Assembly (NCBI RefSeq): GCF_963921235.1
Contig: NC_086097.1
Location: 161,016,001 to 161,080,000 of the forward strand
DNA length: 64,000 nucleotides
Reading direction: 5' to 3'
From: Mobula hypostoma
Lineage: Eukaryota
In this document: piece after piece, positions 10,026 through 64,000 of the stretch
Layout of the letters: the number at the start of each line of letters is the position of its first letter
Numbering within the stretch: position 1 is the first letter of the stretch
Notes under the pieces: model-generated
Databases searched by the model: none
Seen by the model: the letters and a program-made list of their open reading frames with translations, nothing else
Told to the model about the DNA's origin: nothing
Program-made: the position numbers and the translations under genes

Positions 10026-12251
10026 TAATCATCTTAATCATGTAGACATCAACCATAAGATGGACTCTTTTCCCCAAGAAGAGGTAGTCAAGAAAGCCAT
10101 AGGCCAGCTGTCAAGTGACAAGGCTGCTGGAGCAGATGCTATACCAGTAGGGGTCTACAAAACAGGTAGTTCACTCATCACCAGCAAACTGACAGAGGTC
10201 TTCCAGTCCTTCTGGGAGAAGGGTCAGATTCTGAAAGAAATGAAAGGTGCATCCATTGTACACCTGTACAAGCAGAAGGGAAACTGCCAAGCATGCAACA
10301 ACCACAAAGGTATCTCTTTGCTCTCTAATGCTGGGAAAATCTTAGCCAGCATCCTGCCAGACAGACTAAATGCTCATCTGGAACAAGGTCATCTCCCAGA
10401 AAGTCAGTGCGGCTTCTAGAAATGAAGAGGAACTAACAACATGATCTTTGCTGCAAGACAACTTTAGGAAAAATGCCAGGAGCAGAACAGATAGATCTAC
10501 ACCACATTTGTTGATCTTACCAAGGCTTCCAACACCATGAGGTGAGGTGAGAGGGATTATGGAAAACCATGGTGAAGTTTGGTGCCCTGGCAGATTCATG
10601 ACCATGGTCAAGCAGATTCACGATGGGATGTCTGTGTTCGATGATGGTGACTGTTCTGTTGCTTTCTCAGTCACAAGTGGGGTTAAGCAGGGATGTGTGC
10701 TGGTGCCCACCCTCTTCAGCATGATGTTCAGTGTGATGTCAACTGATGGATTCTGGGACAGCGATCCTGGAATCCATATCAAATAGAGGATGGATGGCAA
10801 GCTGTTCAGCCTGTGCAGGTTACAAGCCGTTAATAAGGTCAAAGAGACAGTGCCAAGAGACTTCCTATTCACTGACAACTGTGCTCTCAACATAAGCTAA
10901 GTCAGATGTCAGGACATCATCGACAAATTTTCCACTACATGTGAGAGCTTCGGTCTCTCCATCAGCACCAAGAAGACGGAAGTCATACACCAAGCAGCCC
11001 CAGATCAACCCTGTGTGGAGCCGTCCATCTCGGTGAACATCCAGCAGCTCCAGGCAGTTAACAAGTTCACGTATCTTGGCAGCACGCTCTCAAGAGTTCA
11101 CATTGACAGGGTCCACTGCAGGATCACCAAGGCTAGTGCCAATTTTGGGAGACTATGTGACACTGTCTGGGGCAAAGCGAAATACTCTGAAGACTAAGTT
11201 GGAAGTTTACCGTGCTGCCATCCTACCCACCCTCCTCTACGTCTGTGAAACATGGAATGTGTACATGAGACATGCATGTAGACTGAACCACTCCCACTTG
11301 TCACACCTAAAGCAGATTATGAAAATTAATTGGCAAGACAGAATTCCTGACATGGAGATGCTGTCTGCAGCAGACATGCCCACCATCCACACACTGTTGA
11401 CAAAACATCAAGTCAAATGGGCAGGCCATGTCACCAGGATGTCAGACGATTGCATCCCCAAACAGTTGTTCTTCAAGGAACTGTCCACAGGGAAGCGCTC
11501 TCGTGCTGGTCAGTAAAAACGATTCAAGGACATGCTCAAGACTTTGCTCAAGGCCCTTAAGATCAACTACATTTCTTGGGGACATGCAACCCTGAATCTT
11601 TCATCATAGTGCAGCCTTCTCAATAAAGGTGCCACTGAAGCTGAAAAGGATCACAACACTGAAGCAAAAAGGAAACAGTGGAGAGAACGAGCAGCAGACC
11701 TCTCAGCTACGGAACCTTCACACACTTGCTCATGTGTGGGAGGTACTTCCCTAGCCCAGATTGGACTCACCAGTCGCCACTGGACACACAAATAACAAAC
11801 AAAGGATGTCAATGATCCTCATCACTTGTGATGGACACACACACACACGCCACCCCCACTCGCTCAACCTCCCCCAAAACTGTGTACACCTGTATACACC
11901 TTCAATCCATAACTTACATAACTGGGATACTTTTGTTTAACTCCATCCATACTGAGAGCAACAGGGTTCAATTTATGACAATTGGTAGAACTGGATGGGC
12001 CAAGAAGAACAAGTGATAAATCCCCTGAAAGAGCACAAGTTCCCCATTAAAACAGACATCAGGCCCTAATAACACGTATTGTACACCTTAACTGCTTTTG
12101 ATAACTTTTGATTAGTCTTCTTGAGGATCTTTAATTTGAAATTTTAAACTTAAATTGTTGATGTGCTTTATTTGCAGCAGGGTTTCCCCTAACAACATAA
12201 ATTTCAATCCTGACATTTGATTTTCTTCAGAGGCTAAAAACTAATTTAGAT

Positions 12252-16207: not shown

Positions 16208-17809
16208 GAAGGAGGAGGATAGGGTAGAGGTGAGGAGATTTGGTCATTAATGCAATATAGTCACAATAATCTAAAAACAATCTTTCAAACATTCTGGATA
16301 AGACTCTGGAATGTGCTGCCACATTCCAATAGCTGAGGCAAATATTGCAGACGGATACATTTTAGAAGAAGTTAATTAAGAAAAGGATGAGGAAAAGAAT
16401 TGACAGATATCCTGTTAGATTCAATGTAGTAGAGTGGAACAAAGTTTATGTGGAGTATATATGCTGGCTGGCATTGTACATGCTATTTCTATGCAATAAT
16501 TTGAATTAATTAACCTACTGAATAATTCTTAGAGGTTTCCATTGCTTTCATAATACTTTTTTCTTTCTCCACGTGAATTCTATAACTTTCCCCTTTCCAC
16601 CCCAATTCATATAATGCCTATTCATGCCACTTAAAAGCACAAATCAAGAAAGTATGTTCACTTTTTTTCCTGCATCAATAGCTGTGTTCTTAACGATGTG
16701 TGTGTGCACACCGTGATTCTGATCATTCACATTAGTGAATCATTTTGTCCAGTGTCAGAATGCTGCCAACTTAATTTATATTAATGCAACACAAAATACT
16801 GCAGATTCTGGAAATCTGGATTAAAACTTGATTCCTCAAATATTCTGCAGGCTGAGTAAATTTTCAGAAAGCGGAATACTTAATGTTAAGGGGTACATCA
16901 AATTAAGCAATTTCAGAATACCAGCCATTCCAGTTTATATCAAAATTGGCCTGTCCTGGTGAAAGTTCATCAATCAGAAACATTAACTCTGTGTTATCTA
17001 CTGGCTGAATGGCTGAGCATTTCCAGTACTTCCTGTTTTTATTTCTAGCATCTGTAGTGTTATTTTACCTCACAAGTCCAACATTTTTTTCCTCAATTTT
17101 GTTCTTTTTATCTCTCTCCTCTCCTCTGTTTTTTTTTCAGCTTCTTTGTTTATGGCTCATCCAGAGACATCATTTACAATTAATATGCCTTCACCATATT
17201 CTCCCTTCCAGTATCACCATTTCTGTGCTATTTGGTTTCTCTTGTTCTCTTTGTTCTCTCCACCCTCCCCCTTGTCTGTAATGTGAAATAAATTTAACTC
17301 TATTTCTTCTGAATGCTGACGAAGGCCATCAGGTGAAGTGTTAATCCTGTTCCACTGATAGTATCTGATCTGCTGAGTGCTTCTATGATCCCATGTGTTG
17401 GTATTGGAGTAGAAGGGTCTTGGTTTGAAATGTGAACTGTTTATTCATTTTCATAGATGCTGCCTGACCTGCTAAGTTCCTCCCACATTTTGTGTGTGTT
17501 GCTCTAGAGTGCCTCTGCACAGTTATGCTTGGAAATGAAACGAAGGAACATGCCCAGGTTGACGTCCCACTAGTAATGACAAATGCCACTACGTTGTCAC
17601 TTATCTTTCCCTATGCAAATCTAAAAGTATCAAAGAAGGTATCAGTCTGTGAAACTTGCCTGCAAACCAGTCCCGGTTCTTGACAGGCTGGAAAGAGAAG
17701 TCTTAATTGGTAGTAGTTTGAGTACCCTGGAAGAAGTTCAAATTGTCTTTTGAGATTTGGTGACCAATGCCTTTATTCTCATTTGTTTGCTATGTGCCAA
17801 GTTTGTTCT

Positions 17810-33361: not shown

Positions 33362-35576
33362 TAATCAACACTCTGTGCTAAGTCTAAGGTACAATTAGTG
33401 AAAATAAAAAACTGGAATTTACATCAAATTTTGCAGCAAAGAAACAGATTATTTACCCAAAGATTTATACCTCATGTGAACCCCCTCCTAGCTTATTTCA
33501 ACATCTCAAAAGTGGGATGCTGCATATGCAAAAAGTCTGAAATGAAATATGCTGGGAAAGCTAAATAGTTTAGTTGGCAGTGTGAAAAGAGAAATAATGG
33601 TTAATATTTGGGATCACTGGCATTTCATCAGTGTCCGTTGAAGAGTCATTGATCAGAAATGGTAAGCCTGTATACCTCTCTGCTGACTTCCAGCATACCC
33701 AGAATTTTTTTTTTTTATTTCTTCCCAAATATTTAACATATCCATCCAGCTTTCCTGTTTTCACAGAATATCGACCTGTACCCAAGGAGCGGCATTCTTT
33801 AATAGACAGCTTCAATAAAGTGCATTATTTACCTAAAAGCAACACCTTCCAGTGAAATTCCTGACAAAGGGAATGTTACACAACATTACTTAATTGGAAT
33901 ATGACAATTGAAAATATGAATTTTGAGTCCCCAGAGCCAACCTTTTCCAAAGGAATTCATAATGGCACAGAAATAAACTATTTTCTTACTATAGTAAAAC
34001 TTTTCCATCAGTGAGAATCTTTTACCGCCTTTCTGTAGTTTTTACTGTCCTTTATCTCATAATATAAATCCAGTCATGATTATGCACTCTTTCAGATGTA
34101 CTTGTTCATACACACACATAATTGATGTCCATAATTGCACATGCATACGTGTAAACTGTTCTCATGTACCAAATAAGAAAACATGCCTCTTACTTATTAA
34201 TTATATTCACTCATACTTATTTATGAGCGATGTTGAATGTGCTCCAAGTATTTTAGTCTACAATCTCTCAGAGAATACATTACACCCCTAAAACAAAACA
34301 TGCCTTTCACTTCCATTGCATAAGTGAGCTTTCCAAGAAAACACAACCTGGAATTGCATATATAATTCTTTGTGGCTGATTTTACAATGCATCAATGGTA
34401 TAGAGTTGCTGATGTGCTGGTATTCCTGATATGTGTTTCTGTCAGATGAAGTTCCATTCCTGCATGGTTGAACAGTCACATTTATTTTGAGCATGACAGT
34501 TACAGTATATTTGTTTCTAACAGGCCTATCTAGTTGAGTTCTCTTTATGGCATTCTTCAGCAACATTTCAAAGTTTGGTTCAAGTTCTCTTTCACATGTC
34601 CCACCAAAAGACTGACAGAGCTTGGGCCCATCTGATTGCCTGAAGCTACACTTTTTTAAATTAATTTTTAAAATTAATTTTTTAATGCACTTCTACAAGA
34701 AACTACAGAGAGAGAACCCAACAACAAAATGGAGATTTATACAGTGCAAAACAAACAAATCCAATATGTAATTCATAACAATAAGAAAAAAAGCACCCAA
34801 AAGGCAACTATGTAAGATTAGTATCCACCCCAACCTCCCACTAAAAAAAGAAAAAAACCCAGGCCAACCATTTTGCATATAAAAGAAAAAAAATCAATCG
34901 GAGCATTCAACCCCAGAGAACTGTAAATATATATGGGAAAAAAGAAAGTAGAAGCTACACTTATGATCTGGAGTGGGACTTGAATTCACTGCCTTTGAAC
35001 CCGATGCTACCTATTGACCCATGTCTATATCAGTATGATATCTAGTGCGTCTATGAGTGGGCAGTCATCACTGTTTGTTCATGTGTATTAGGTCAAATGG
35101 GCAATGACTTCATTTAAGAAGGTTTGGCAGATAATAGCACATTTAAGCTAGGAGAATAGCCAAAAGAACCGAATGTTCTTTTGTTCACAGTCTAAGTGGT
35201 TTAACACATTGCATGTGTCTTCAGGAACAGGAGGATACTAAACAAACGTAATTTATCTGATTCACAGACGCAAGAGATTCTGCATTTGCTAGAAATCCAG
35301 AGAAACACATACAAGATGCTGGAGGAACTCAGCAGCTCAAGCAGCATCTCTGGAATAAAGTTGACATTTCAAGCCAAGACCAACTGTTTACTCCTCTCTC
35401 CACAGAGGCTGTCTGCCCTGTTGAGTTCCTCCAGCATCTTGTATTTGCTATTCCCTATTTTATCAGATTATTTTGCCACGATCATTTTTTATTGTAAATT
35501 GATTTTCATATGCAGACACATTGATGAAATGGTCTCTATGTCGATTTAAGAGGGTGGTTGGTTGACTTTTTTCCAG

Positions 35577-37829: not shown

Positions 37830-39008
37830 GTAGGTGATGGAGGTTCAAAACTCTAAACAGTGCAGACTAGAACCAACTGCACTGGATCCAACATTTTATA
37901 GCACACCTCGGAAATATATTTTTCATAGAACCATGGCACAATGTTACTCAGAAGCCTTGAAATGAAAACTCAGTTATGCTTACTGTCTCTGCACTTTCCC
38001 CATAGCTCTTTGAAAATTTATCCAGTTCACTTTGAGTCACACTGTTAAACATGCTTTTACTGTTCTTTCATTCCAGATGAAAGCAAAACACTTCATATTT
38101 ATTCCTTCATGTTGCCTTCAAGTCATTTTCTAAATATTTTTGCTTTCATAAGTATACATTTTTGCAAAGTGTGTTTTTTGAACAAAGCAGGACACTGCAA
38201 TGGGTTATGGACAGGTTGAATGAGTGGGCAAAGGTTTAATTAGGCAAGTGTGAGGTCATGCACTTTGTCTAAAAAAATCAAAGAAAGTAGATTATTACCT
38301 AAATGAAGAAAGACTGCTAGTGAGTAAAGTACAGAGAGATCTAGGTGTTCTGATGCATGAATCACAAAGTGCTAGAAGGCAAGTTCAACACATAATTGCA
38401 ATTGTACAGAGTATTCATCTTGATTATTACCTATATTTTTGGTCTTCTTACTTAAAAAATATAGTAACATTGCAGCCAGTATTAAGTGGGTGACCTCATA
38501 TTTTTAAATACTGACACCTAGTCCTAGATATTTCCACAAGAAGAAACATCCTCACCACATCTACCACATTAAGACCTCAGCAGATCTTATAGAAGTAACT
38601 CTCACTTTGTTAATCTCCAATAGACACAAGTCTTACATCTCCAACCTTCCTTCTTAAGACAATTTCCCCATTCCTGGTATTAATCTTGAAAACCTTAGGG
38701 AAACCAAGCAAGCTGAAGCGGGTAAAAAGAATAAAATAATATATCGGCTAGATTATGTGAAGGATATGAGGAAGCTTTTGTTGAGAACTGGCCAGTTGTT
38801 GTATTTCTCTGTTTAAACTACATAAGTCTGCAAGAGATGGGCTGGCAATCATTTCACACCAACACTCTGTGCTTTAATTGTGTGAAAGGTTTTGAGAGAT
38901 TTCAATGGATAAGATTCACTGTAAATATAATTACAATTGCTGAATTGTTCTGATTTTGTCAGTGCATTAATGAAGAACTAACATAGTTCCTTATGGATTT
39001 TATTGCAG

Positions 39009-40377
39009 TTCCTCTTTGATCTTATGGTCTGTGGAAAACTGAATGGGAACAAGGTCATTGAAGAGTTTGTTCTGCACTCAGCTGCCCCCATGGACACGGC
39101 CATCAAACTCTCCCATGCTTTTGGCATCACGGCTCTGAAAGAAAAGGAGAGATACAGGGAGTGGCTGGAAGCTGCCAAGTACTGTGAGAACATGGCCAGT
39201 GAGCTGCTTACAGTGGCGTCTGGTTGCAAGAGTGCTGGCTATTTGCTTCGTGCTGTGGATCAGCGAGGCACCAGCATGCTGGACTCCTTAATAGAGTGCG
39301 AACAGAAGGAAGTGGTAGCTCACCCAGCGGTGCAGAAATACCTAACTGACGTCTGGTATGGCAACTTGAAGTGGGCCCACTGGAAAATAGTCCTTTTGTT
39401 TTTTATCTTCCTCATCTGTCCTCCTATTTGGCTGCTCTTCTCCCTCCCAATTCACCAGTTCAATAGGATTCCAATTATGAAATTCATGAGTCATTTGGTT
39501 TCTCATATCTTCCTCCTGGTGCTGTTTATACTAACAATAGTCTATCCCCCACTTAGCCCAATATATGAAGGTCGGATGCTTCCCTGTTGGAATGAATGGC
39601 TCCTGCTGGCTTGGCTTTCAGGAATGCTGGCCTCTGAACTGACCCACCCAGGCGAGAGAGTCGGATTGGCATGGATTCGGATATTTCTCTTGGGATTTTC
39701 AGCCGTCGCTGTCTTCTGTCACCTGCTTGCTTTTGCCTTCCAGGACAATGAGCGGCTGCACTGTTTTTTTGCACGAAATATTTTCCTCGCAGTAGCCATG
39801 ACCCTCTGCTTTGTGCAGTTTCTGGAGTTTCTCACCTTCCACCACCTCTTCGGCCCCTGGGCTATCATCATCCGAGACCTGATGAAGGACCTGGCCAGGT
39901 TTGCAATCATCCTTGCGCTGTTTCATGCAGCTTTCACCATGCAGCTCGTAGCAGTTTACCAACCTGTATACCCTGCACCACCAGTCAAACCATCTGCTGG
40001 AAATAGATCAGGTTCTGAAGAGGCACATTATGACATTCAAGACCCATTGGATATTACTGTCTTACTTTTCTTTGCTCTGTTTGGTATGATGGATCCAGAC
40101 TCCTTACCCAAATTGTATCGGACGCCCATTTTTACCCAGTTCATTGTCAAGTTTGTTTTTGGAATGTACCTTGTCATGACTCTAATTGTCCTGATCAACT
40201 TGCTGATTGCTATGATGAGCGACACATACCAGCGAATCCAGGCACAGTCAGACACTGAGTGGAAGTTTGGGAGGGCCATGTTAATCCGTGACATGATCAG
40301 GAAATCAGGGACCCCTTCTCCATTTAATCTATGCACCAATCTTTTCTACTACATCAAAATGCTGTGCAAACGTAGGG
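39009..40377 (+). CDS. trpn1: TRPN1 exon encoding linker, S1-S6 transmembrane domain, pore and TRP box
   Basis: ttgcag acceptor, g|gtaagt donor (phase 0-1); six hydrophobic segments, FHHLFGPWAIII S4-S5 linker, LFFALFG pore helix, LINLLIAMMSDTYQRI S6, EWKFGR TRP box, all typical of TRPN. Confidence 0.96.
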
Positions 40378-42917
40378 GTAAGTCAATGATTTACATTCAT
40401 TTGAAAGGGTGGACCAAATTTTTTATGAGTACTTCATGAGTGAAGTTAAATTTGGAATAGGAATTGATTTACTAGTGTCACATTATATGTAGGGAGATAT
40501 AGTGAAAAGCATTTCTTGCGTACTGTTCATACAGATCAAATCATTACACAGTGTTTTGAGGTAGAACAAGGTAAAACAGTAACAATGCAGAATTTACTGT
40601 AACTAGTAGCTGACTGTCACAATGTAACAGAAAAACTGTAGGTAAACAATAAGGAGGAAGATCACAAGGCAGACTAGGAGGTTAAGAGTCAAACTTATTG
40701 GAGTGGAGGACAGGAGATGACTCGAAGGAGGCACAGAAGATGATAGGAGGCATAGGTTGAGTGGATTGCTCGGCTTAAATGGTTAATACAAGTGGGCATA
40801 ATTTTAAGGTGATCGGAAGAGAGTATGAGGGGATAACAAAGTCAAGTTCCTTATACAGAGAGTTGTGAGTGCATGGAATGCCCTGCCAGGGGTGGGGTTG
40901 AGGCAGATACATTACGGGAATTTAAGAACCTCTTGGGCACATGGATGATAGAAAAATGGAGAGCAATTTAGGAGGGTAAGGTTAGATTGATCTTAGAGTA
41001 GGTTAACAAAGGATGGCACCTGTAAACCAAAGGGTCTGTACTGTGAAATGTTCTATGTTCTTAGCTTTCTAGGGAACTATAGCAACAGGGAAGAAACTGT
41101 TCTGGATGATGGTGGTATGTGTTTTCAGGTTTTTGTATCTTCTGACCAATGGAAGAGGAGAGAAGAGAGAATGAACAGAGTGGGTGGGATCTTTGATTAT
41201 GTTAGCTGCTTTACTGAGATAATGAGAAGTGTAGACAGAGTCCAGGGAGGGGAACTGGTTTCAACGATGTGTTGAGCTGTGTTCACAAATCTCTGCAGTT
41301 TCTTGCAGTCACCTGCAAAGCAGTTGCCATCTCAAGCCATTATTCATGCATTGTAGCCCTTATTTTCCTAGCATGTGTATCTATGGAAACTGACAAAAGT
41401 AAACCAAAAGGCACAGGAAAGCCAGGGATTTGTGCGAAAGAGCAGAGTCTGGTTTACGCCTTTAATAGGCACAGACACAATGGAGTCATGCAAAATTGGC
41501 ATTGGTTATTATTTTCACAAGTACCAAAATACAGTGAAAAGCTTTTGTTTGCATGCCATCCAGACAAATCATGCCATGCCTAAGTACATTCAGGTAGTAA
41601 AAGAATAATTTCTGATGCTGGATTCTGACCCAATATGTCAATAATTCCTTTCCTCCCACAGATGGTGTACAGCCTGCTGAATTCCTCCTGCAGATTGTTG
41701 CTGCAGAATGCTGTGTTACAGTGACAAAGAAAGTGCAGTTCAGTAAGACAAATAAAGTCCAGGGGCCACGGCCAGGTCAATTTGAAGTCCAAGATCTCAC
41801 CTTCAGGCATATGAGAGGTCCATTCAAGAGTCTGATACCAGCAGGATAGAAGTTATCCCCACCACTGTTTTCATCCAATGTGTTTATATGCTCTCAAAAG
41901 ACAGGATGACTAAAATAACCTGATCACTTGCCCCATGCACCATCAAGTCCTGAAGGTGCCAGGTAATCAGAGTTCTATTCTAATCCAATTTGAATGACTC
42001 CCACAGATTGTATGCATTCTTGCCTCGAGGTATCTATTCCGTCTGCATATGCAAATCAGCCTTCGCCTAATCTTGGATCCTTATTTCTGGTCTTTGAGCT
42101 TTTACAATAACAACTTTAAAACATAGAGAATTGTCGTCAGTAATTCAGAAATGAATGCCCATTGATACTCCCTGCATTGACTGGCTACAGTCCCAAAAGT
42201 GAGGTCTGGGTAAACCTTCTCTGACTACCTTAAAAAGCTCTCCAGGATGCACTTTAAAAATCCCTTCTCCTGTAAGCCTTTCACACTGAGGTGAAAGCAT
42301 TGAATATTGGGGAAGTTGGAACTATCTGTTTCGAGATGTACTCTAGCTATTGTTCCATTACAGTATCTGAGTTGGTGGCAGGGTTTAGGCAGATGTCTAT
42401 TCTTCTGTCTCTGAGTTGATGTAGTCAGCCAATGGCGTGAAAATCTCTCTTCTACCTTTTCTCTTTAATCTTCAATTGACTCCACTGGAACACTTTGGTT
42501 CCAGTGATCATAACACCATTAGTTTCAACTTGATCATGGATAAAGATAGTTTTGGTCCTAGGGTAGAAGTTCTAAACTGGAAGAAGGCCAAATTTGAAGA
42601 AATGAGAAAGGATTTAAAAAGCGTGGATTGGTACAGGTTGTTCTCTGGCAAGGATGTGATCTGTAAGTGGGAAGCCTTCAAAGGAGCAATTTTGAGAGTG
42701 CAGAGCTTGTATGTTCCTGTCAGGATCAAAGGCAAAGTGAATAGGAATAAGGAACCTTGGTTCTCAAGGGATATTGCAACTCTAATAAAGAAAAAGAGAG
42801 AGTTGTATGACATGTATAGGAAACAGGGAGTAAATAAGGTGCTTGAGGTGTTTTTTAAAATTGCAAGAAAATACTTAAGAAGGAAATCAGGAGGGCTAAA
42901 AGAAGACATGAGGTTGC

Positions 42918-43074
42918 TCTTACTAACTCTTCCTTCAGTTAGTCCTGACGAAGGGTCTCGGCCTGAAGCGTCGACTGTACCTCTTCCTAGAGATGCTGCC
43001 TGGCCTGCTGCGTTCACCAGCAACTTTGATGTGTGTTGCTTGAATTTCCAGCATCTGCAGAATTCCTGTTGTTT
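42918..43074 (+). mobile_element. 157-bp 3'-terminal fragment of Penelope-like element containing a hammerhead motif
   Basis: Near-identical to 61511-61620 and to the reverse complement of 59123-59277; 10-bp TSD atgaggttgc at 42908-42917 and 43075-43084. Confidence 0.9.
42941..42976 (+). ncRNA. Minimal type I hammerhead ribozyme motif, core variant GAAG
   Basis: agtc-CTGACGA-agggtctcggcct-GAAG-cg-TC-gact; stem I agtc/gact. Confidence 0.65.
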
Positions 43075-46000: not shown

Positions 46001-47079
46001 AAGATACAGACCATACCATCCGCACAACCACGATTATATCACTGTTATAATACTTAACACAACTGACAACCCTTCCCAAACTCCAACAATTCTTTAAGGT
46101 CATCCAAATGGTTTTGAACCTCCAGCCACACAGCCCTAAAGCTTGGACTCAATTCCTCGACAACTTGTTTTCATTCACAAAAAAACATTTCTGACTATTT
46201 ACAAAAACTAACCATAGCATGTGAAAGTTTTGGTCACATTTGGTCTTGTTGTTAAGTAGATTGATAGATTAGGTTAAATGTTACAAGAATTATGATGCCA
46301 GAAACAAACTTAATCTGTAGAGATTCCACTCAGCAGCTTGAAAATGATTGAATGACATTATTCTACAATCACTTGACATATTTGTATCTCTGTGATGTTA
46401 AAGAAGTCAATGCATACTTGTATGATAACATGATGAATCATAATTGCAATAGTGTAAAGGGGAGAGAAGTCCCGTGGGAAATAGGGCTGTTGAAATGTTG
46501 GAGCAGGGTGAGGTCAACAAACTCACTCGACCTTTCCGGGCAACAGCTCCAGATAATAGCCATCCATTCCAAATCACCAGACTCATACAGTATATAATGC
46601 TTGATGTCCAAATATAAAGAATGCAGCACCCTCTTTGTTGCCACCTTCGAAAAAGTAGATCACACATCACAGTGCATCTAAGGCTTATTATGGGCATTTA
46701 AACCATTATTCCAATACCACAATAGTTAATACCTTTTTCGCAATGTTTCGCCACAATCCCACATATAAATAGAACATTAATCATTTAGCTCTGGAACAGA
46801 GTCTATGCTGGTCATGATGCCAATCTAATCTCATCTGTCAGTACACAGTCATATTTCCTATATCCTGCGAACCTCACGAAAGGTCTCAACCCAAAACGCA
46901 ACTGCCTGTTTCTCTCCATTGATGCTGCCTGACCTGCTGAGTTCATGCAGCTTTTTGTTTTGTACCACTTCAGATTTCCACCATCTGTAGTCTCTATGTC
47001 TCCCTCCATAACCTACCTGTTAATTTATCTGTCTGAACATATCTTTAAACATTGCCATCTTATAAAGTCTTCTTGGGCT

Positions 47080-53490: not shown

Positions 53491-56365
53491 GCAGAGTGGA
53501 ACAAAAAGTACTTATGGTTGTTACGTGTAAATGGAATGGAAATTGTAAAAGGCATAGCCCTTGAAATAGCACAATGTCACATTGAAGATGAATAGTTTAA
53601 ACTTAAGTATTTCTCAGCATCCTGAAAATTGCCTTCCATGACCAGCCAGAGGCAGATTATACCAAGTAACATTCACTGCCATTCACAATTTATGGATTAC
53701 AGCATAGACCACAAATTATCAGATTGTGTCTCCTGAAGAAAGAGGAAGTGAAGTATATTGATCATTCTAACCCAAGACTAATTTGTTCTTCTGTTCCTTT
53801 ATTCAATTTTAGATCTATAAATTCTCAATTACTATAAAGGGGGAAAATAAGATCTTCTGTGACAGATTAATTAAAGGTTGCTTCAGCTATAATATTACAA
53901 AATAGATTTCTGTTTTGACCTTTTATATTTTTAGGCCTGGTGTTGATACAGCTCCAGCATGATGAAAGACCAAAGGTCTGTAAGTGTGATTTTGGCACCA
54001 ACTATCAAACTTGACTTGCCAAATCCCGATAACCTCAAAATCATGAGGATTGTAACATTGTTCAGCTATGTGTCTGCGTAACCAGTTAGTGGTTTCTGCA
54101 CCTTTCAAGGTCATCAACCATATATCAAGCAGCTATTCATCGAGTAACGTTAATCAGAGGAGAAGGATCATCATAACCATTGATGTGTAATAAAGTGTGG
54201 TTTTTATTCATTAAGTGATTATTATTTTATTTAAAGGATTTTACATAGCAGTACAATTGCTTAGCAGATCTGTTTTTACTTGGTAAGACAAATGGCAGCA
54301 TGTAATTCTCCCCATTTGGCACCATGTTGCAATGTAACGTGAGACAAATTGAGTCCATCGTGTAGTTATGACAGGCATCTCACTGATTTTAAAGTTCAAA
54401 GTAAACTTACTATCAAAGTATATTTATGTCACCATATACCACCTTGAGATTCATTTGCAAGCCACTGAAATAATGTCCATATTTTCTGTAAGCTGGGAAG
54501 ACAAACCTTCCTCTGAGAAAAATGAAGAAGGAAAATGATGGATTGCAGGGAGGTATGAATGGCTGATATTGAAATATTAGCCATAAAATCAATTTACTCC
54601 CATCATGAAGCAAAAACAGAAAATGCTGGATAAACTCAGCAAATTGGCAGCATCAATGGGGAGAGAAATAGTTATTCTTTTAGATCTGAGGCCCTTTATC
54701 AGAAATGAAAACAGAGAAACAAATTAGTCCAGGCGGCAGAGAAGTTAGTGAATCCGAATGGCCATAATTTATTTTTAATTTTTATTTATTCCCACATCCA
54801 GTCGTCCATATTTCCTTGTTCATTCTATCTTGCTTCATATTTTGCTAGAATTTTATTTCCATTTCTAGGGCACTGAAAAAATGTGTATTTCTAATGCCTC
54901 TTTGATCTGGCCAGAAATGCCATTCTGGACATAACATTTAGTTATCTCCAAATGTAGAAAGCTTTCTGGCAACTGCTGCAAGGTTCCAGCGGGGTAGGTT
55001 AAAATTAAGGTGCATATTGCAACATTTGATTTTTGGGTTAATTTTCTCTTTCCATTTTTTAACCACACTTATTCTGATTGAAGTACCTTCTTCTTTCATA
55101 AAACATGCTTGTTATAAGGCATTTTCCATAAATGCAGGGTGCAGAGAGACCTCACTAATCTCACTGTGCTCCACTTGGTTCTTCACCCTCCCCTCCCCTC
55201 CCATTTCAACAAGTTCACTCACAGAGCTCATCTCCTTCTGATCTTTCTGTAGTCTGCTCAGACTGTTGACCTGTTGTGTCAAAACATGGGTTAGGAGATG
55301 TTCCATCACAGACGTGGTGTAAGTAGACATATTGTGGTTAGTATCAGGGATTGGTGTTGGGAGGGGGGTGGTTAGTAACAAGATTGCTAGAATCATTCCT
55401 CTCCCTGCCTGGTTATTTGGTGCATTCCTCTCCGTAACCACTTAGTTCATCATTTCCCTGGTGCGCTCAAAAACCAGACTAACCCCATGTTCAATGAATT
55501 CTGACTTTCATTAAGGCCAAATGAAATGTTAATTTATAAATAAATAAACAATTTCTTTCTGCAATTTCAACGGTGACTGTCGCTTAGATAAAGCATCGCA
55601 CATTTTGTATGGAGCCTAGATATAGTAGATAGGAAGTATCTATTTCCCTTGCAGAAAATCAATAACACGTGGACTTATACTTAGAATATGAAAAATGAAT
55701 AGGATATTTTCCTCCCAGTAAACTGGGAAGGCACAGACCTCAGAGCCCAAATGGATAGCCAAAGCAAGAACCACCATCACATTTATGCAGCATTCAAATG
55801 CGCCTATGAACTGTCATACAGACCAAAAGCTAGCAAATGGAATGACTGAATGCATCACATGATCATTTAAAGAAACAGGCCAGCATTTTTGTCAAGAGCC
55901 TGCCTGAATTTAAAACTATTTTAATCTGTTTGTTCTACTTTTGTTACTGATATGATTAGTGTGCTTTGTACAAAGATTTTCAATGTTTTTGATAATTTAT
56001 ACAATTGGAGGAATATTTTTGAATTATTTATAGTATCTTCTTATCTAAGATCCTTGTCTACTTTGGAGAAGGAAAATAATTAAAAGCTTAATCTGTACTA
56101 TTATAGAGTAAACTTGCTGCAGTATAAGAAAATGTTTTGTTTAAAGTATGCTGCCATGAATTTGTTAGTAATATCATTAGTGTTTGGTAATTAGTAATAG
56201 GACTAACAAACAACAAGATATTATCGTACTATGGAGATTTTCTCTTGGATTACACTTGTGAACTAATTACCTATGATAAAGTCTTCTTGAAAAAGCGTTC
56301 AAAATTATTTTTTTGTGAAGAATTTGAAAAAGCCTGAATAATGATGAGCTGTGCACATTCTACAT

Positions 56366-56669
56366 GGTAGCTCATAGCGTAGTGGTTAGCATAATGGTTT
56401 ACCATACCTGTGAACAAGGTTAATTCCCCACCACTGTCTGTAAGGAGTTTGTACGTACTCCCCATGACCACATGGGTTTCCTCCAGGTGCTCCAGTTTTC
56501 TCCCACAGTCCGATGACATACAGTCCATGTAAATTGTCCCGTGATTAGACTAAGTCGGAGTAGATCGGAGTAATCAGAGTAAGTCGGATTAGAGTAAATC
56601 AGAGTTCGCTGGGTGGCATGGCTGAAAGAGCCTATTCTGTTCTGTATCTCAATAAATAAATAAAATAAA
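56366..56669 (+). mobile_element. V-SINE (HE1-like) with CR1-derived tail
   Basis: tagcgtagtggttagc A-box, V-domain gggtttcctccaggtgctccagttttctcccacagtcc, tail ggctgaaagagcctattctgttctgta plus (aaat)n. Confidence 0.8.
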
Positions 56670-57974
56670 CTACCTACCCTACCCTTCTTAAGGCAGTGAT
56701 TTGAATTGAAAGTTGAATTGAATGTATTGAATAATACTGGGGTGAAATTGGGTCAGAGCAGTATACAGAATGGCCAAACCAATTTTGTCACATATTAAAG
56801 AACAGCACAATAATTATCTCCATTGAAATCATTAGACATGAATATAGACTGGAGTGACTGTTTTAAAGGTGCAGCCACTGCCAATTTAACCTCAGTCGAA
56901 TTTTACAGTAGTATCTGTTCCTTGCTTGTATCTTCCTCACTCTCTGGTGCTTCCATCTTTAGATCCCTGTGGAGAATGTCAAGGGTCTAAGGGTCTAAGC
57001 ATGCTGAAAAGATCCCTCATTCACTTTCCAAAGTTGTCATGGAGCTCTGGCTGATTGATGACTCTACCTGGCATATTCCTGACCAGCAGAGCTCATTGGA
57101 AGATCTTCCTCTTGCAGAATGCACTTAGTTTTCAATACCTGGATCCAGCAAGGGTTATTTTTTGTGACCCAATCTTAGAGTGTATGGAACGAAGCTGAAG
57201 GTGGGTTTACGCACACAGCAGGTGGAGTCATGGCCGCTCTATTGAAGTAATAACAATACAGGAAGAAGCCAATTCTCCCAAATGAGTGAATGCAGGCTTA
57301 ACAGAGAATGAAATGTTTAATAAATGCAATAAATTTAAGTAAAAAGGAAACCTTGTAATCAAGAAGAATGTAATATAACACAGAAGCAACAGTTGAAGGT
57401 AGAAACATAAACAGGAATGAAAGAGCAGAACAGGGACACACTATAAATAAAGTTGGAAAAAACAAGATGACAGTGAAATGAAACAAAAGACTAAAATTAA
57501 TTACTAGGGAGATACTGGCCAGGTGGATGAAGACAGTTAGAATGAAGTAGGAAACTTGGAGGCAACTGAAATCAGCAGAAGATCTAGTCCACTCTTTCCT
57601 TACCCTGAAGTGAAAAGTTACAATTTTAACTGAAATGGCAGCTGAATTTAACTGAGTTAAGGTCTGTGCAGCTAGTGCTGGGAACAGCTCAGACAGTTTG
57701 GACTAAGTCAGGATGAAAAGCCCAGCTTGAAATTTGACTTCTGGTGCATACAATAAACAAGTTTTATGGTGTATCTTTAATGTACCCTGGCAGTAGTATT
57801 CAGTTCACTGACTTCAAAGAACTGATGACTACAAATTAGAACCATTTAGTGCCTAAATGACATATTAAGATAGTTTTGTGCGTATTTTGATCATGACTAA
57901 TTATGAAGTGAATTTTCTAGGCTTCAATCCTGGGCCCAACATATTGATACAATTACAAAAGAAGCACAACAGTG

Positions 57975-58535
57975 GCTATATTTCATTAGAGGTTTGAGGA
58001 GAATTGATATGTCAGCAAAGACATTCACAAATTTCTACTGAAGTACAGTGGTGAGCATTCTAACTGGTTGCATGACTGTGAGGTATGGAGGGGCCACTGC
58101 TCAGGATCAGAAAAAGCTGCAGGAACTTGTAAACTCACCCACAGCTCCGTCATAGGCACCAACCTCCTCAGCATTCTCGACACCTTTAAAAGGCAATACC
58201 TCAAAAAGGCGGCATCCATCATTAATGACCCCCCTCACACAGGACATGCTTCTCATTGCTGCCATCAGGGAGGAGGTACAGGAGCCTGAAGACACATCGT
58301 CAATATTTCAGGAACAGCTACTTCCCCTCTGCCATCAGATTCCTGAATAGACAATTAACTCATGAACACAACCTCAGCATTTTTTCTCTCTTCTCGCACT
58401 ACTTATTGAATTTATTTTTCATATATACTTTTCATTGTAATTTATAGTTTTTATTGTATAGCAATGTACTGCTGCCATAAAACAACAAATTTCACAACAT
58501 GTGCCAGTGATATTGAATCAGATACTGATTCTGAA
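57975..58535 (+). mobile_element. Decayed Rex1/Babar 3' fragment
   Basis: LPSGRRYRSLKTH...RNSYFPSAIRFLN; typical 3' UTR and ctgattctga tail. Confidence 0.8.
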
Positions 58536-59125
58536 TTTTAGATGGGCAATGAAACACTAAGGGTCTAAGCATGGTAAATATGGTGCAGCTCTTGTAGGCT
58601 GGGAGCAATGGATGTTCTCTTTCCAAGCTGCAAGATAAACCTCGGTGAAGGTAGGATTCCCTTCAGTGAAAGTTCAAGGGAAAGGCCTGTAGAAGTGTTG
58701 AAATTTTAGGAAAAATTGTCACTCACAGTCAGTTTTCTGAATAGTTGGCCACCAATCATATAAGAAGCAGAATGGCCAGAAGTCGTAGTACGTATTGGTG
58801 TCAGTGACAAGGAGGAGGTCCTGAATACAGAATACAGGGAGTTAGGAAGAAAGCTGAGAAGCAGGATCTCAAGGGTAGTTATCTCAAGATTGCTGCCCGT
58901 GCCACGTGACTGTGAGGATAACAATAGAATGAGGTGGTACGGCTGAAGAATTGGAGCAGGGGGCAGGAATTCAGATTTCTGCATAATTGGGACCTCTTCT
59001 GGGGCAGGTCTAGCCTGTACAAATGGTATGGGTTGTACTTGAATCTGAGGGGGACCAATATTCTTGTGGACAGGTTTACCAGAGCTGCTGGGAGTGGTTT
59101 AAACTAATATGATGGGGATGGGAAC

Positions 59126-60397
59126 AACAGGAATTCTGCAGATGCTGGAAATTCAAGCAACATACATCAAAGTTGCTGGTGAACGCAGCAGGCCAAGCAG
59201 CATCTATAGGAAGAGGCGCAGTCGACGTTTCAGTCCGAGACCCTTCGTCAGGACTAACTGAAGGAAGAGTGAGTAAGGGATTTGAAAGCTGGAGGGGGAG
59301 GGGGAGATGCAAAATGATAGGAGAAGACAGGAGGGGGAGGGATAGAGCCGAGAGCTGGACAGGTGATAGGCAAAAGGGGATACGAGAGGATCATGGGACA
59401 GGAGGTCCGGGAAGAAAGACAAGGGGGGGGGGTGACCCAGAGGATGGGCAAGAGGTATATTCAGAGGGACAGAGGGAGAAAAAGGAGAGTGAGAGAAAGA
59501 ATGTGTGTATAAAAATGAGTAACAGATGGGGTACGAGGGGGAGGTGGGGCCTTAGCAGAAGTTAGAGAAGTCAATGTTCATGCCATCAGGTTGGAGGCTA
59601 CCCAGACGGAATATAAGGTGTTGTTCCTCCAACCTGAGTGTGGCTTCATCTTTACAGTAGAGGAGGCCGTGGATAGACATGTCAGAATGGGAATGGGATG
59701 TGGAATTAAAATGTGTGGCCACTGGGAGATCCTGCTTTCTCTGGCGGACAGAGCGTAGATGTTCAGCAAAGCGGTCTCCCAGTCTGCGTCGGGTCTCACC
59801 AATATATAAAAGGCCACATCGGGAGCACCGGACGCAGTATATCACCCCAGTCAACTCACAGGTGAAGTGATGCCTCACCTGGAAGGACTGTTTGGGGCCC
59901 TGAATGGTGGTAAGGGAGGAAGTGTAAGGGCATATGTAGCACTTGTTCCGCTTACACGGATAAGTGCCAGGAGGGAGATCAGTGGGGAGGGATGGGGGGG
60001 ACGAATGGACAAGGGAGTTGTGTAGGGAGCGATCCCTGCGGAATGCAGAGAGAGGTGGGGAGGGAAAGATGTGCTTAGTGGTGGGATCCCGTTGGAGGTG
60101 GCGGAAGTTACGGAGAATAATATGTTGGACCCGGAGGCTGGTGGGGTGGTAGGTGAGGACCAGGGGAACCCTATTCCTAGTGGGGTGGTGGGAGGATGGA
60201 GTGAGAGCAGATGTACGTGAAATGGGGGAGATGCGTTTAAGAGCAGAGTTGATAGTGGAGGAAGGGAAGCCCCTTTCTTTAAAAAATGAAGACATCTCCC
60301 TCGTCCTAGAATGAAAAGCTTCATCCTGAGAGCAGATGCGGCGGAGACGGAGGAATTGCGAGAAGGGGATGGCGTTTTTGCAAGAGACAGGGTGAGA
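59126..60397 (-). mobile_element. Penelope-like element, left arm (RT C-terminus, GIY-YIG endonuclease, complete 3' end)
   Basis: ORF 59552-60406: IPFSQFLRLRRICS...VIYCVRCSRCGLLYIGETRRRLGDRFAEH...LQPDGMN. Confidence 0.95.
59220..59255 (-). ncRNA. Minimal hammerhead ribozyme motif (left arm; one substitution in stem II)
   Basis: Minus strand agtc-CTGACGA-agggtctcggact-GAAA-cg-TC-gact. Confidence 0.7.
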
Positions 60398-60407
60398 CGC
60401 CATCATA

Positions 60408-61620
60408 CAAAAACGCCATCCCCTTCTCGCAATTCCTCCGTCTCCGCCGCATCTGCTCTCAGGATGAGGCTTTTCATTCTAGGACGAGGGAGATGTCTTC
60501 ATTTTTTAAAGAAAGGGGCTTCCCTTCCTCCACTATCAACTCTGCTCTTAAACGCATCTCCCCCATTTCACGTACATCTGCTCTCACTCCATCCTCCCAC
60601 CACCCCACTAGGAATAGGGTTCCCCTGGTCCTCACCTACCACCCCACCAGCCTCCGGGTCCAACATATTATTCTCCGTAACTTCCGCCACCTCCAACGGG
60701 ATCCCACCACTAAGCACATCTTTCCCTCCCCACCTCTCTCTGCATTCCGCAGGGATCGCTCCCTACACAACTCCCTTGTCCATTCGTCCCCCCCATCCCT
60801 CCCCACTGATCTCCCTCCTGGCACTTATCCGTGTAAGCGGAACAAGTGCTACATATGCCCTTACACTTCCTCCCTTACCACCATTCAGGGCCCCAGACAG
60901 TCCTTCCAGGTGAGGCATCACTTCACCTGTGAGTCGACTGGGGTGATATACTGCGTCCGGTGCTCCCGATGTGGCCTTTTATATATTGGTGAGACCCGAC
61001 GCAGACTGGGAGACCGCTTTGCTGAACATCTACGCTCTGTCCGCCAGAGAAAGCAGGATCTCCCAGTGGCCACACATTTTAATTCCACATCCCATTCCCA
61101 TTCTGACATGTCTATCCACGGCCTCCTCTACTGTAAAGATGAAGCCACACTCAGGTTGGAGGAACAACACCTTATATTCCGTCTGGGTAGCCTCCAACCT
61201 GATGGCATGAACATTGACTTCTCTAACTTCCGCTAAGGACCCACCTCCCCCTCGTACCCCATCTGTTACTCATTTTTATGCACACATTCTTTCTCTCACT
61301 CTCCTTTTTCTCCCTCTGTCCCTCTGAATATACCTCTTGCCCATCCTCTGGGTCACCCCCCCCCCTTGTCTTTCTTCCCGGACCTCCTGTCCCATGATCC
61401 TCTCGTATCCCCTTTTGCCTATCACCTGTCCAGCTCTCGGCTCTATCCCTCCCCCTCCTGTCTTCTCCTATCATTTTGCATCTCCCCCTCCCCCTCCAGC
61501 TTTCAAATCCCTTACTCACTCTTCCTTCAGTTAGTCCTGACGAAGGGTCTCGGCCTGAAACGTCGACTGTGCCTCTTCCTATAGATGCTGCGTGGCCTGC
61601 TGCGTTCACCAGCAACTTTG
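60408..61620 (+). mobile_element. Penelope-like element, right arm (inverted copy, lacks last ~40 nt)
   Basis: ORF 60493-61236 differs from the left arm at 3 residues (K/R, L/S, C/R); whole unit flanked by 17-bp TSD atgatggggatgggaac at 59109-59125 and 61621-61637. Confidence 0.95.
61533..61568 (+). ncRNA. Minimal type I hammerhead ribozyme motif with intact core
   Basis: agtc-CTGACGA-agggtctcggcct-GAAA-cg-TC-gact; stem I agtc/gact, 3-4 bp stem II, palindromic ACGT stem III, GUC cleavage triplet ending at 61564. Confidence 0.8.
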
Positions 61621-64000
61621 ATGATGGGGATGGGAACCAGTATGATAGAGCTGAGGATGAGCCAGCAGGTTTGCAAGTAGATGATGGATGTAACATGAAT
61701 TTAAGGAAGGACAGGCCAGTGACTGGATACAAATGCAGACAGAGCAGAGATATATTGTACCACAGAGGCAGAATTCAAAAGGGCAAAGAATGTAGGATTG
61801 AAGGTGCTCTATTTAAATGCACATGTCATTCAGAATGAGGTGGATGAACTTGTGGTGCAATTAGAGATTGGTCAGTGTGATATTGTGGGCATCACTGAGT
61901 CGTGGTTGAAAGAAGGCCATAGTTGGGAGCTTAACATCAAAGGATAAACTTTGTATCGAAAGGATAGGCAGGAAGATACAGGCGGTGGTGTGTCTCTGTT
62001 GGTAAGAGATGGAATTACATCTTTGGAAAGAGGTGACATAGGGTCAGAGGATGTTGAATCTTTGTGGGAGGAGTTAAGAAATTGCAAGGGTACAAAAAAC
62101 ATTATGGGAATCATATATAGGCCTCCAATTCGTAGCCAAGGTGTGGGGTTGAAATTGCAAAGGGAACTGGAAAAGGCATGTAATAAGGGTATTGTCACAA
62201 TTGTATTGAGGGACTTCAATATGCAAGAGGATTAGGAAAATCAGGTTGGTGTCGGATCGCAAGAGACGGAATTTGTTGAATGCCTATGAGAATTTTAGAG
62301 CAGCCCGCTTGAGCCTACTCGGGGAAAGGCTATTTTAGACTAACTTGTGTAATAACCTAGATCTTATTATGGAGCTTAATGTAAAGGAACCCTTAGGAGG
62401 CAGTGATCATGATATGAACTAAATTTATGCAGCAATTTGAGAAGGAGAAGCATAAGACGTATGTATCAGTATCACAATGGTATAAAGGGAAATACAAAGG
62501 CATGAGAGAGGAGCTTGCCCAGGTGGATTGGAAGAGGATATTGGAGGGGAACATGGCAGAGCAGAGATGGCTGAAGTTTCTGGAAATAGTTCACAAGTGC
62601 AAGATAGGTAAGTCCCACAGAAGTAGTTCTCAAATGGCAGAGCTAGGCAACCGTGGCTGACAAGAGAAGTTAAGGACTGCATAAAAGCCACAGAAAAGGG
62701 TATATAAGGTAACAAAAGTGAGTGGGAAGTTGTCACAATTTGGAATGTCTTAAATTCCAACAGAAGGCAACTAAAACAGCTATAAGAGGGAAAAGATGAA
62801 ATATGAGGGCAAACTAGCCAATAATATAAAGCAAGAGATTATAAGATTTTTCAGTTAAATAAAGAGTAAAAGGCAGGTGAGAGTTGATATTGGACCACCG
62901 GAAAAGGATGCTGGTGAGATAGTAATGGGGGACAAAGAAATGACGGATGAATTTAACTGAGTACTTTGCATCAGACTTCACTGTGGAAGACACTAGCAGT
63001 GTGCTAAAGGTCCATGAGTGTCTGGGAGCAGAAGTGAGTGCCATTGCTATTGCAAAGGAAAAAATGCAAGGCAAACTCAAAGCTCACCTGGACCAGATGA
63101 ACTACTTCTCCAAGTCCTGAGAAAGGTTTCTGAGGAGATAACAGATGCATTGGGCATGATCTTTCAAGAATCACTTGATTCTGACATGGTCCCAGAGGAC
63201 TGGAAGATTGCAAATGTCATTCCACACTTTAAGAAGGGAGGAAGGCAAAAGGACGGAAATTATAGGCCAGTTAGCTTCACCTCAGTGGTTGTGAAAGTGT
63301 TGGAGTGTATTATTAAAGGTACTTGGAGACTTATGATAAAACAAATCAAAGTCAGCATGGTTTCTGTAAAGGAAAATCTTGCCTGATGAATCTGGTAGAG
63401 TTCTTCGAGGAATTAACAAGCATGGTGGACAAAGGGGAGGCAGTGGATGTCATTTACTTGGATTTTCAGAAGGTATTTGATAAAGTGCCACACGTAAGGC
63501 TGCTTAACAAGATAAAATCCTATGGCATTACAGGAAAGATACTGGCATGGATAACAGGATGGCTGACAGGCAGGAGGCAGTGAGTGGGAATAAAAGGGAC
63601 CTTTTCTGGTTGGCTGCTGGTGACTTGTGGTGTTTCTCAGGGATCAGTGTTGGCACCACTACTTTTCACATTGATTGTCAGTGATTTGGACAATGGAATT
63701 GATGGCTTTGTGGCAAAGTTTGCAGATGATACGAAGATAGGTGGAGGAGTAGGTAGTGCTGAGGAAGCAAAGCGATTGCGGCAGGACTTAGACAAATTGG
63801 AAGAATGGGCAAAAAATTGGCAGATGGAATACAGAGTTGGGAAATGTATGACAATGCATTTTGGTAAAAGTAACAATAGTGCAGATTTCTCTAAATGGGG
63901 AGAAGGTTCAAACATCAGAGGTGCAGAGGGATTTAGGAATCCTCGTGTAAAACTCCCAGAAGGTTAATTTACAGGTTGAGTCTGTGATAAAGAAAGCAAG

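Follow-up and report, generated by a model that had tools for sequence, protein, structure and literature searches.

A minimal type I hammerhead motif lies within the window analysed here (the whole 64,000-nucleotide stretch of ray DNA), and we conclude from sequence comparison and predicted folding, with a probability of roughly 0.87, that it is the hammerhead of the 3′ end repeat of a Penelope-like element (PLE), and that it is a passenger, probably without activity here, of a young insertion made up of two truncated copies in inverted orientation. The motif class is already known, and the locus, one of very many copies, matters little alone; its small value lies in the clean anatomy of the insertion and in the U11.1 variant of the motif. 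The features of the locus are listed in Table 1.

The conserved core nucleotides C3-U4-G5-A6-N7-G8-A9, G12-A13-A14-A15.1 and U16.1-H17 are all found in type I order by direct reading of 61533-61568, as the original prediction had it. Helix I (4-5 bp, a fifth pair being possible as the wobble U61532.G61569) and helix II, which close the core, are both present. Helix III is absent; positions 15.2-16.2 are CG, which is palindromic, and the reduction of this stem to the palindrome ACGT that had been described is borne out by ACGU at 15.1-16.1. C17 is at 61564, in agreement with the cut that had been predicted after C61564. The motif had also been called intact, which is true of core and stems but not of the G10.1-C11.1 pair typical of minimal hammerheads (min-HHRs), in place of which the window copy has G.U. 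A G-C pair at 10.1-11.1 favours activity, and we found no measured effect of G10.1.U11.1 on cleavage rate in the literature searched. Besides U11.1, the inverted duplication and the distance from TRPN1 with its intervening AATAAA signals are new with respect to the original prediction.

Table 1. Features of the hammerhead locus and its surroundings in the window.
Feature	Position	Strand	Basis
TRPN1 coding exons (residues 718-1640 of closest homologue), stop 54012-54014	5551-54014	+	homology
Solo 157-bp PLE end in TRPN1 intron, with tail and 10-bp target duplication	42918-43074	+	alignment; model match
First AATAAA past TRPN1 stop, followed by GU/U-rich stretch	54189-54194	+	motif only
Left target-site duplication	59109-59125	+	alignment
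Left arm, inverted copy of the same PLE end, with tail	59126-60397	-	alignment
39-nt tail, left arm only	59126-59164	-	alignment
Twin hammerhead motif, U11.1 and C-to-A change in stem II at 59234	59220-59255	-	sequence; model match
10-nt filler between 5′ truncation points, partly repeating sequence just downstream	60398-60407		alignment
Right arm, 5′-truncated PLE, ending without tail	60408-61623	+	alignment; contig loose ends at 60408 and 61623
Open C-terminal 273 codons of PLE ORF, GIY-YIG endonuclease, no RT	60415-61236	+	Pfam, homologues
CX4CxxC linker upstream of endonuclease	60832-60858	+	motif reading
3′ non-coding end (pseudo-LTR, pLTR) with hammerhead	61237-61623	+	sequence; same place in homologues
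Upstream strand predicted to pair with core 61537-61548 (hairpin, -10.5 kcal/mol)	61518-61530	+	folding
Minimal type I hammerhead motif	61533-61568	+	direct sequence reading; top match of homologue covariance model
Stem I, 5′ strand and 3′ strand	61533-61536, 61565-61568	+	4 Watson-Crick pairs
CUGACGA core	61537-61543	+	sequence
Extra A between 9 and 10.1	61544	+	sequence
Stem II, 4 pairs, two G.U including G10.1.U11.1	61545-61556	+	sequence
GAAA	61557-61560	+	sequence
ACGU palindrome (15.1-16.1), to which helix III is reduced	61560-61563	+	sequence
C15.2-G16.2-U16.1-C17	61561-61564	+	C17 = 61564
Right target-site duplication	61621-61637	+	alignment
Decayed host LINE, ORF2 remnant, many stops and frameshifts	61638-64000	+	RVT_1, 5e-11

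A loose core pattern has five matches in the window against 1.09 expected, and none of 100 shuffled sequences reaches five. In a covariance model built from 34 homologues with the window excluded, 61533-61568 ranks first of 19 matches (27.8 bits, E = 7.8e-5), with E-values that are rough, as a site devoid of stem II (12204-12238, minus strand) came second, ahead of the twin and the intronic copy in third and fourth place; lacking stem II, this site was taken as a chance match. An Rfam scan of 55000-64000 with E up to 10 returned no hammerhead family among its 18 matches, as is expected for so small a motif. Rfam microRNA matches at 60311-60477 reflect merely the centre of the inverted repeat and are all below gathering scores. 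The isolated 36-mer is no more stable than its own shuffles (z = -0.37). With neither unusual stability nor an Rfam match, the case for the motif rests on its homologues.

Among 80 homologous PLE loci from metagenomes, 52 were usable, covering the end of the endonuclease and no fewer than 130 nt beyond it, and 28 were dropped for missing either that end or downstream DNA. The core occurs in sense in 37 of the 52 usable loci and in antisense in one, no pairing being required; a stricter descriptor finds it in sense in 20 of 45 loci, and neither in antisense nor in shuffles. In the homologues it lies at the same sense position, 88-319 nt past the endonuclease match. Over 34 distinct motifs, and in permutation tests that are inflated by the relatedness of the homologues, stem I pairs in 111 of 136 cells (mean 64.6 and maximum 84 in 5000 permutations), the covariation score is 0.636 versus 0.199 (reached by 0 of 500 shuffles; slid controls 0.05-0.10), and the number of pairs changed on both sides is reached by 14 of 500 shuffles. 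The stems thus covary among the 34 homologue motifs. Positions 15.2-16.2 are CG in 31 homologues, UA in two and UG in one, under a pattern that limited 15.2 to C or U; the extra nucleotide between 9 and 10.1 is A in 34 of 34, helix II has 4-5 bp, and position 11.1, a U in the window motif, is C in 34 of 34. We conclude from these sequences that the motif is under selection within the retroelement family and not for TRPN1.

Two of the homologous loci (L037 and L048), apparently complete PLEs, carry the hammerhead in sense twice, about 3 kb (3.1 kb) apart around the ORF, and would be better material for dimer assays than the window copy. Another homologue (L008:1076-1119) shows in its core the U3-A8 covariation known from the PLE hammerheads of Schistosoma. 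The exact pattern of the ray motif was found in none of the metagenome contigs and in none of the viral contigs. It has a single match in a bacterial genome, which we attribute to chance, as it is without CUGANGA.

The identity of the host element is given by the reading frame preceding the motif, whose stop codon lies 300 nt upstream of the hammerhead on the same strand. The GIY-YIG match of this frame (Pfam PF01541) scores 22.7 bits at a cut-off of 22.6, and the endonuclease has the Cys/His arrangement CCHH, one Cys lying between VIY and YIG and two His following further on. The protein has 62% identity with one from a shark and 46% with a 904-aa protein bearing an RT. It matches the C-terminal third of RT-bearing proteins, and one homologue carries both RVT_1 and GIY-YIG; the RT of the window copy has been lost by truncation. 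By the linker and endonuclease definitions in the accessible part of PMC8557442, the sequence is probably that of a Neptune/Nematis-type EN+ PLE, the CX2-5CxxC linker being absent, according to the same part, from Penelope/Poseidon PLEs. The claim of a minimal, dimer-type hammerhead of a PLE is therefore supported by the homologues, the covariance model, the endonuclease ORF and the available portion of PMC4209133. Both arms of the insertion keep the endonuclease frame free of stops (59558-60397 on the minus strand and 60415-61236 on the plus strand), in line with a recent insertion.

The insertion is a tail-out inverted duplication in which 59165-60385 and 60403-61623 differ at 11 of 1221 aligned bases (99% identity), or at 9 of 1216 outside the centre. 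The tail confined to the left arm recurs in the solo copy at 42918-43074 and in contig loose ends at 61623, and loose ends before 60408 show the natural upstream sequence of the element. The target-site duplication is 14-17 bp long, and on the right side its first 3 bases also belong to the end of the element. Both arms, being truncated, stop short of the RT, and there is neither a full-length partner nor an upstream pLTR. The arms are rich in CpG (39 CpG, 52 GpC) and sit inside a decayed LINE with 20 CpG against 100 GpC, 44-66% identity to a ray LINE protein and 1-8 stops per aligned piece, the 5′ part of which lies at about 58700-59125 on the other side of the insertion. The near-identity of the arms and their CpG content within this decayed surrounding point to a young insertion. 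From its motifs we take the host LINE to be CR1-like; just upstream of it, about 58000-58500 is presumably the remnant 3′ end of another non-LTR retroelement.

That the motif is a chance match, as the silence of Rfam and a monomer fold not above shuffles might suggest, or that the inverted duplication is an assembly artefact, its central junction being absent from the 15 of 1314 contig joints listed, is hardly credible: 37 of 52 homologues carry the motif in sense at the same place, with compensatory changes, and a fold-back artefact would not yield 11 differences between arms, a target duplication and a one-sided tail. Contigs bridging the centre or the right junction were not seen among the 8 pieces listed per run, which is uninformative either way. 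At one metagenome locus (L074), a like inverted pair has a 16-bp duplication, and one of its ends is extended by about 50 nt. A second locus (L045) has a similar but less clear layout, and its 13-bp target duplication lies in simple sequence; target duplications were looked for at L010 and L072 and not found.

In PMC11167929, nicking and extension by the PLE protein affect both DNA strands, and reverse transcription begins at two sites, one on either side of the tail. At the present locus, both ends of a staggered cut may have primed cDNA, one from the tail-inclusive and the other from the tail-less start, and the joining of the two truncated cDNAs in the middle would give the inverted pair. 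The clean anatomy, with one arm tailed, the other not, and a target duplication, fits such two-ended priming at the two starts seen in vitro. If 59126-61623 were transcribed through, from either strand, the product would be a near-perfect 1.2-kb dsRNA, which might give rise to small RNAs or undergo editing.

When an active element is transcribed in tandem, its two sense copies would swap strands, such that the ACGU of one copy pairs with the ACGU of the other to form helix III and the cut falls after C17, probably aided by the element's own protein. The window offers no good partner of this kind. The twin at 59220-59255 is antisense to the motif and thus cannot serve, and a search of 57000-64000 for a direct repeat of the motif found only the inverted pair. 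The solo intronic copy, sense to TRPN1 and 18.6 kb upstream, is the only other near-intact sense copy in the window, but its hammerhead has A15.1G besides U11.1, which makes it a poor partner in cis; it starts not at the cut site but 23 nt ahead of stem I. U11.1 is common to all three near-intact copies in the window. It may be a subfamily trait or the outcome of repeated CpG decay; an active subfamily may carry it, and it is not necessarily a sign of decay. Three older, decayed and related PLE ends are found in TRPN1 introns (17412-17479 and 46872-46945, plus strand; 35313-35381, minus strand), at 73-75% identity and all with broken cores. In the copy at 46872, C11.1 is retained and the G after it is gone, as CpG decay of an ancestral C11.1-G12 would predict.

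The family is abundant in four sequencing runs, with 305,555, 264,624, 17,608 and 10,578 contigs on the element; these contigs tell neither strand nor RNA ends. Depth peaks on the hammerhead bin in three of the four runs, and two of the runs (X1 and X5) show clusters of loose ends at 61533 and 61570, which indicates that diverged subfamilies share just this block and differ in their flanks. No variant row falls inside 61533-61568 among the 40 of 148 rows listed, and the nine lowest-looking listed rows each reach 0.55 or more in some run; a guessed ranking of these rows hints that C at 61556 is not a clear majority in the family. The run with 17,608 contigs (X9), which we guess to be RNA, shows the family and not this locus.

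Predicted folding bears directly on the competence of this copy. Stem II forms with probability 0.86-0.96 in the isolated 36-mer, whereas stems I and II are both below 0.01 in local context. The upstream strand at 61518-61530 is complementary to the core in all three near-intact window copies and is not general in distant homologues, where stem II has a median probability of 0.89 (0.13 or less in 6 of 32), so that conservation of an anti-core hairpin upstream is not supported. At equilibrium, stem I is mostly unformed in the homologues as well (median probability 0.01, n = 32); local misfolding is thus not peculiar to this copy. More particular to the locus is the inverted twin. Folding of 59100-61660 is predicted to pair 35 of the 36 bases of the motif with 59220-59255, and the arm duplex is put at -69.1 kcal/mol, compared with -6.0 for stems I and II and -9.5 for the dimer model.

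It is unlikely that the copy is competent in RNAs that start, from a cryptic or end-repeat promoter, in the right arm or just upstream of the motif and is cut there with PLE protein supplied from elsewhere, leaving TRPN1 unaffected. Both stems do reach a predicted probability of about 0.8 when the RNA starts at 61529-61531, and the Anolis hammerhead was cut only with the protein, a pLTR promoter having been proposed (PMC11167929). With at least 15 upstream bases, however, the competing hairpin dominates and the stems fall to 0.01-0.06, and an RNA starting inside the right arm would be expected to prefer the local hairpin to the core. Such RNAs would also find no sense partner in cis and would carry U11.1 where 34 of 34 homologues have C. 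RNA-seq reads that stop at the cut site were not found even for the active Anolis family (PMC11167929).

The motif is indeed sense to and downstream of TRPN1, as had been stated, since the gene is on the plus strand and ends upstream. One of its exons (39018-39191) has 95% identity to stingray TRPN1. A single very large exon of 459 codons (39006-40382) holds the whole channel domain. C17 lies 7,550 nt beyond the TRPN1 stop. The first AATAAA, 175 nt past the stop, is likely the polyadenylation signal of the gene, judging by its sequence and position, and seven more AATAAA, eight in total, precede the insertion.

This arrangement speaks against the proposal that the copy, with another copy as its pairing partner in cis or trans, cuts read-through RNA from TRPN1 or the host LINE after C61564 as a back-up terminator, which we regard as very improbable. 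A complete core in sense to TRPN1 would permit it, and the abundance of the family, also in the run guessed to be RNA, means that partners in trans may exist. The motif, however, stands far past the stop and behind all eight AATAAA; plus-strand read-through RNA from either source copies the antisense arm before the motif and would be predicted to fold into a 1.2-kb duplex that buries it; the twin is on the wrong strand and the intronic sense copy has A15.1G; and a trans dimer would hold by three helices of about 4 bp at -9.5 kcal/mol. The insertion is moreover young and the host LINE decayed. As one arm of an inverted duplication far past TRPN1, the copy is likely paired and silent in read-through RNA. 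A motif that did end TRPN1 read-through would present the rare situation of a vertebrate sensory channel gene acted on by a retroelement ribozyme; the evidence is against this.

A further idea, which we consider quite improbable, is that the hammerhead of the ray subfamily is switchable, the weak stem II with G10.1.U11.1 and the upstream strand that locks the core making sense copies protein-gated cutters of read-through RNA. Release would then come only from the element's protein or in RNAs starting just before stem I, and sense copies past genes such as TRPN1 could cut read-through RNA, with trans partners plentiful.

Our preferred reading, a passenger hammerhead that is likely inactive here, can be set beside several known systems. 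In the literature searched, we found no paper naming this ray PLE family and no case of host-gene read-through cutting or exaptation for such hammerheads. Host-domesticated hammerheads are known from mRNA 3′ UTRs and introns, with mammalian CLEC2 and amniote HH9 among them, and are old, conserved at one locus and folded as monomers. The window motif resembles them in being sense to a host gene, but it is a young repeat copy without helix III, about 7.4 kb past the likely poly(A) signal. Non-LTR retrozymes, as far as the accessible texts of bioRxiv 10.64898/2026.07.22.740005 and PMC7761336 go, likewise have a type I hammerhead of PLE origin, and one chondrichthyan case is reported. They are head-to-tail tandems with at least two sense hammerheads, whereas the window holds a tail-out inverted pair with ORF remnants, and we reject identity with them since 57000-64000 contains no direct motif repeat.

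Lunse et al. 2017 is reportedly to be named alongside the min-HHRs of metazoan PLEs. Such min-HHRs lie in pseudo-LTRs, and they have been reported from Neptune, Poseidon and Xena PLEs of fishes, according to the portion of Cervera and De la Pena 2014 (PMC4209133) available. In the same portion, the G10.1-C11.1 pair is highly conserved, an emergent feature outside the descriptor and so not defining, and in assays monomers were inactive and dimers weak. The window copy is like the min-HHRs described there in its type I core, the absence of helix III beyond a palindromic 15.2-16.2, the extra base between 9 and 10.1, a helix I of 4-5 bp, its place in an end repeat and the closeness of opposite-strand copies. 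It differs in G10.1.U11.1 and in the lack of a second sense copy, and its helix II has 4 bp with two G.U, compared with the 7-8 bp given there for Schistosoma min-HHRs. The part of PMC7761336 consulted leaves open what PLE minimal hammerheads do in vivo. The abundant ray family is good material for this question, and the window copy is a poor test case, as its inverted twin is predicted to bury the motif.

The insertion finally resembles those of canonical EN+ PLEs, for which the accessible portions of PMC8557442 and PMC3846280 describe an inverted, 5′-truncated partner and a one-sided tail of 30-40 bp. The shared features are a C-terminal GIY-YIG with the Cys/His motif, 5′ truncation, a head-to-head inverted copy, a tail on one end and a target-site duplication, whereas the truncation of both arms before the RT, with no full-length partner and no upstream pLTR, sets the window insertion apart from the form described there. 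Its linker Zn-finger would place the element with Neptune/Nematis, while the Anolis element tested in vitro belongs to Penelope/Poseidon.
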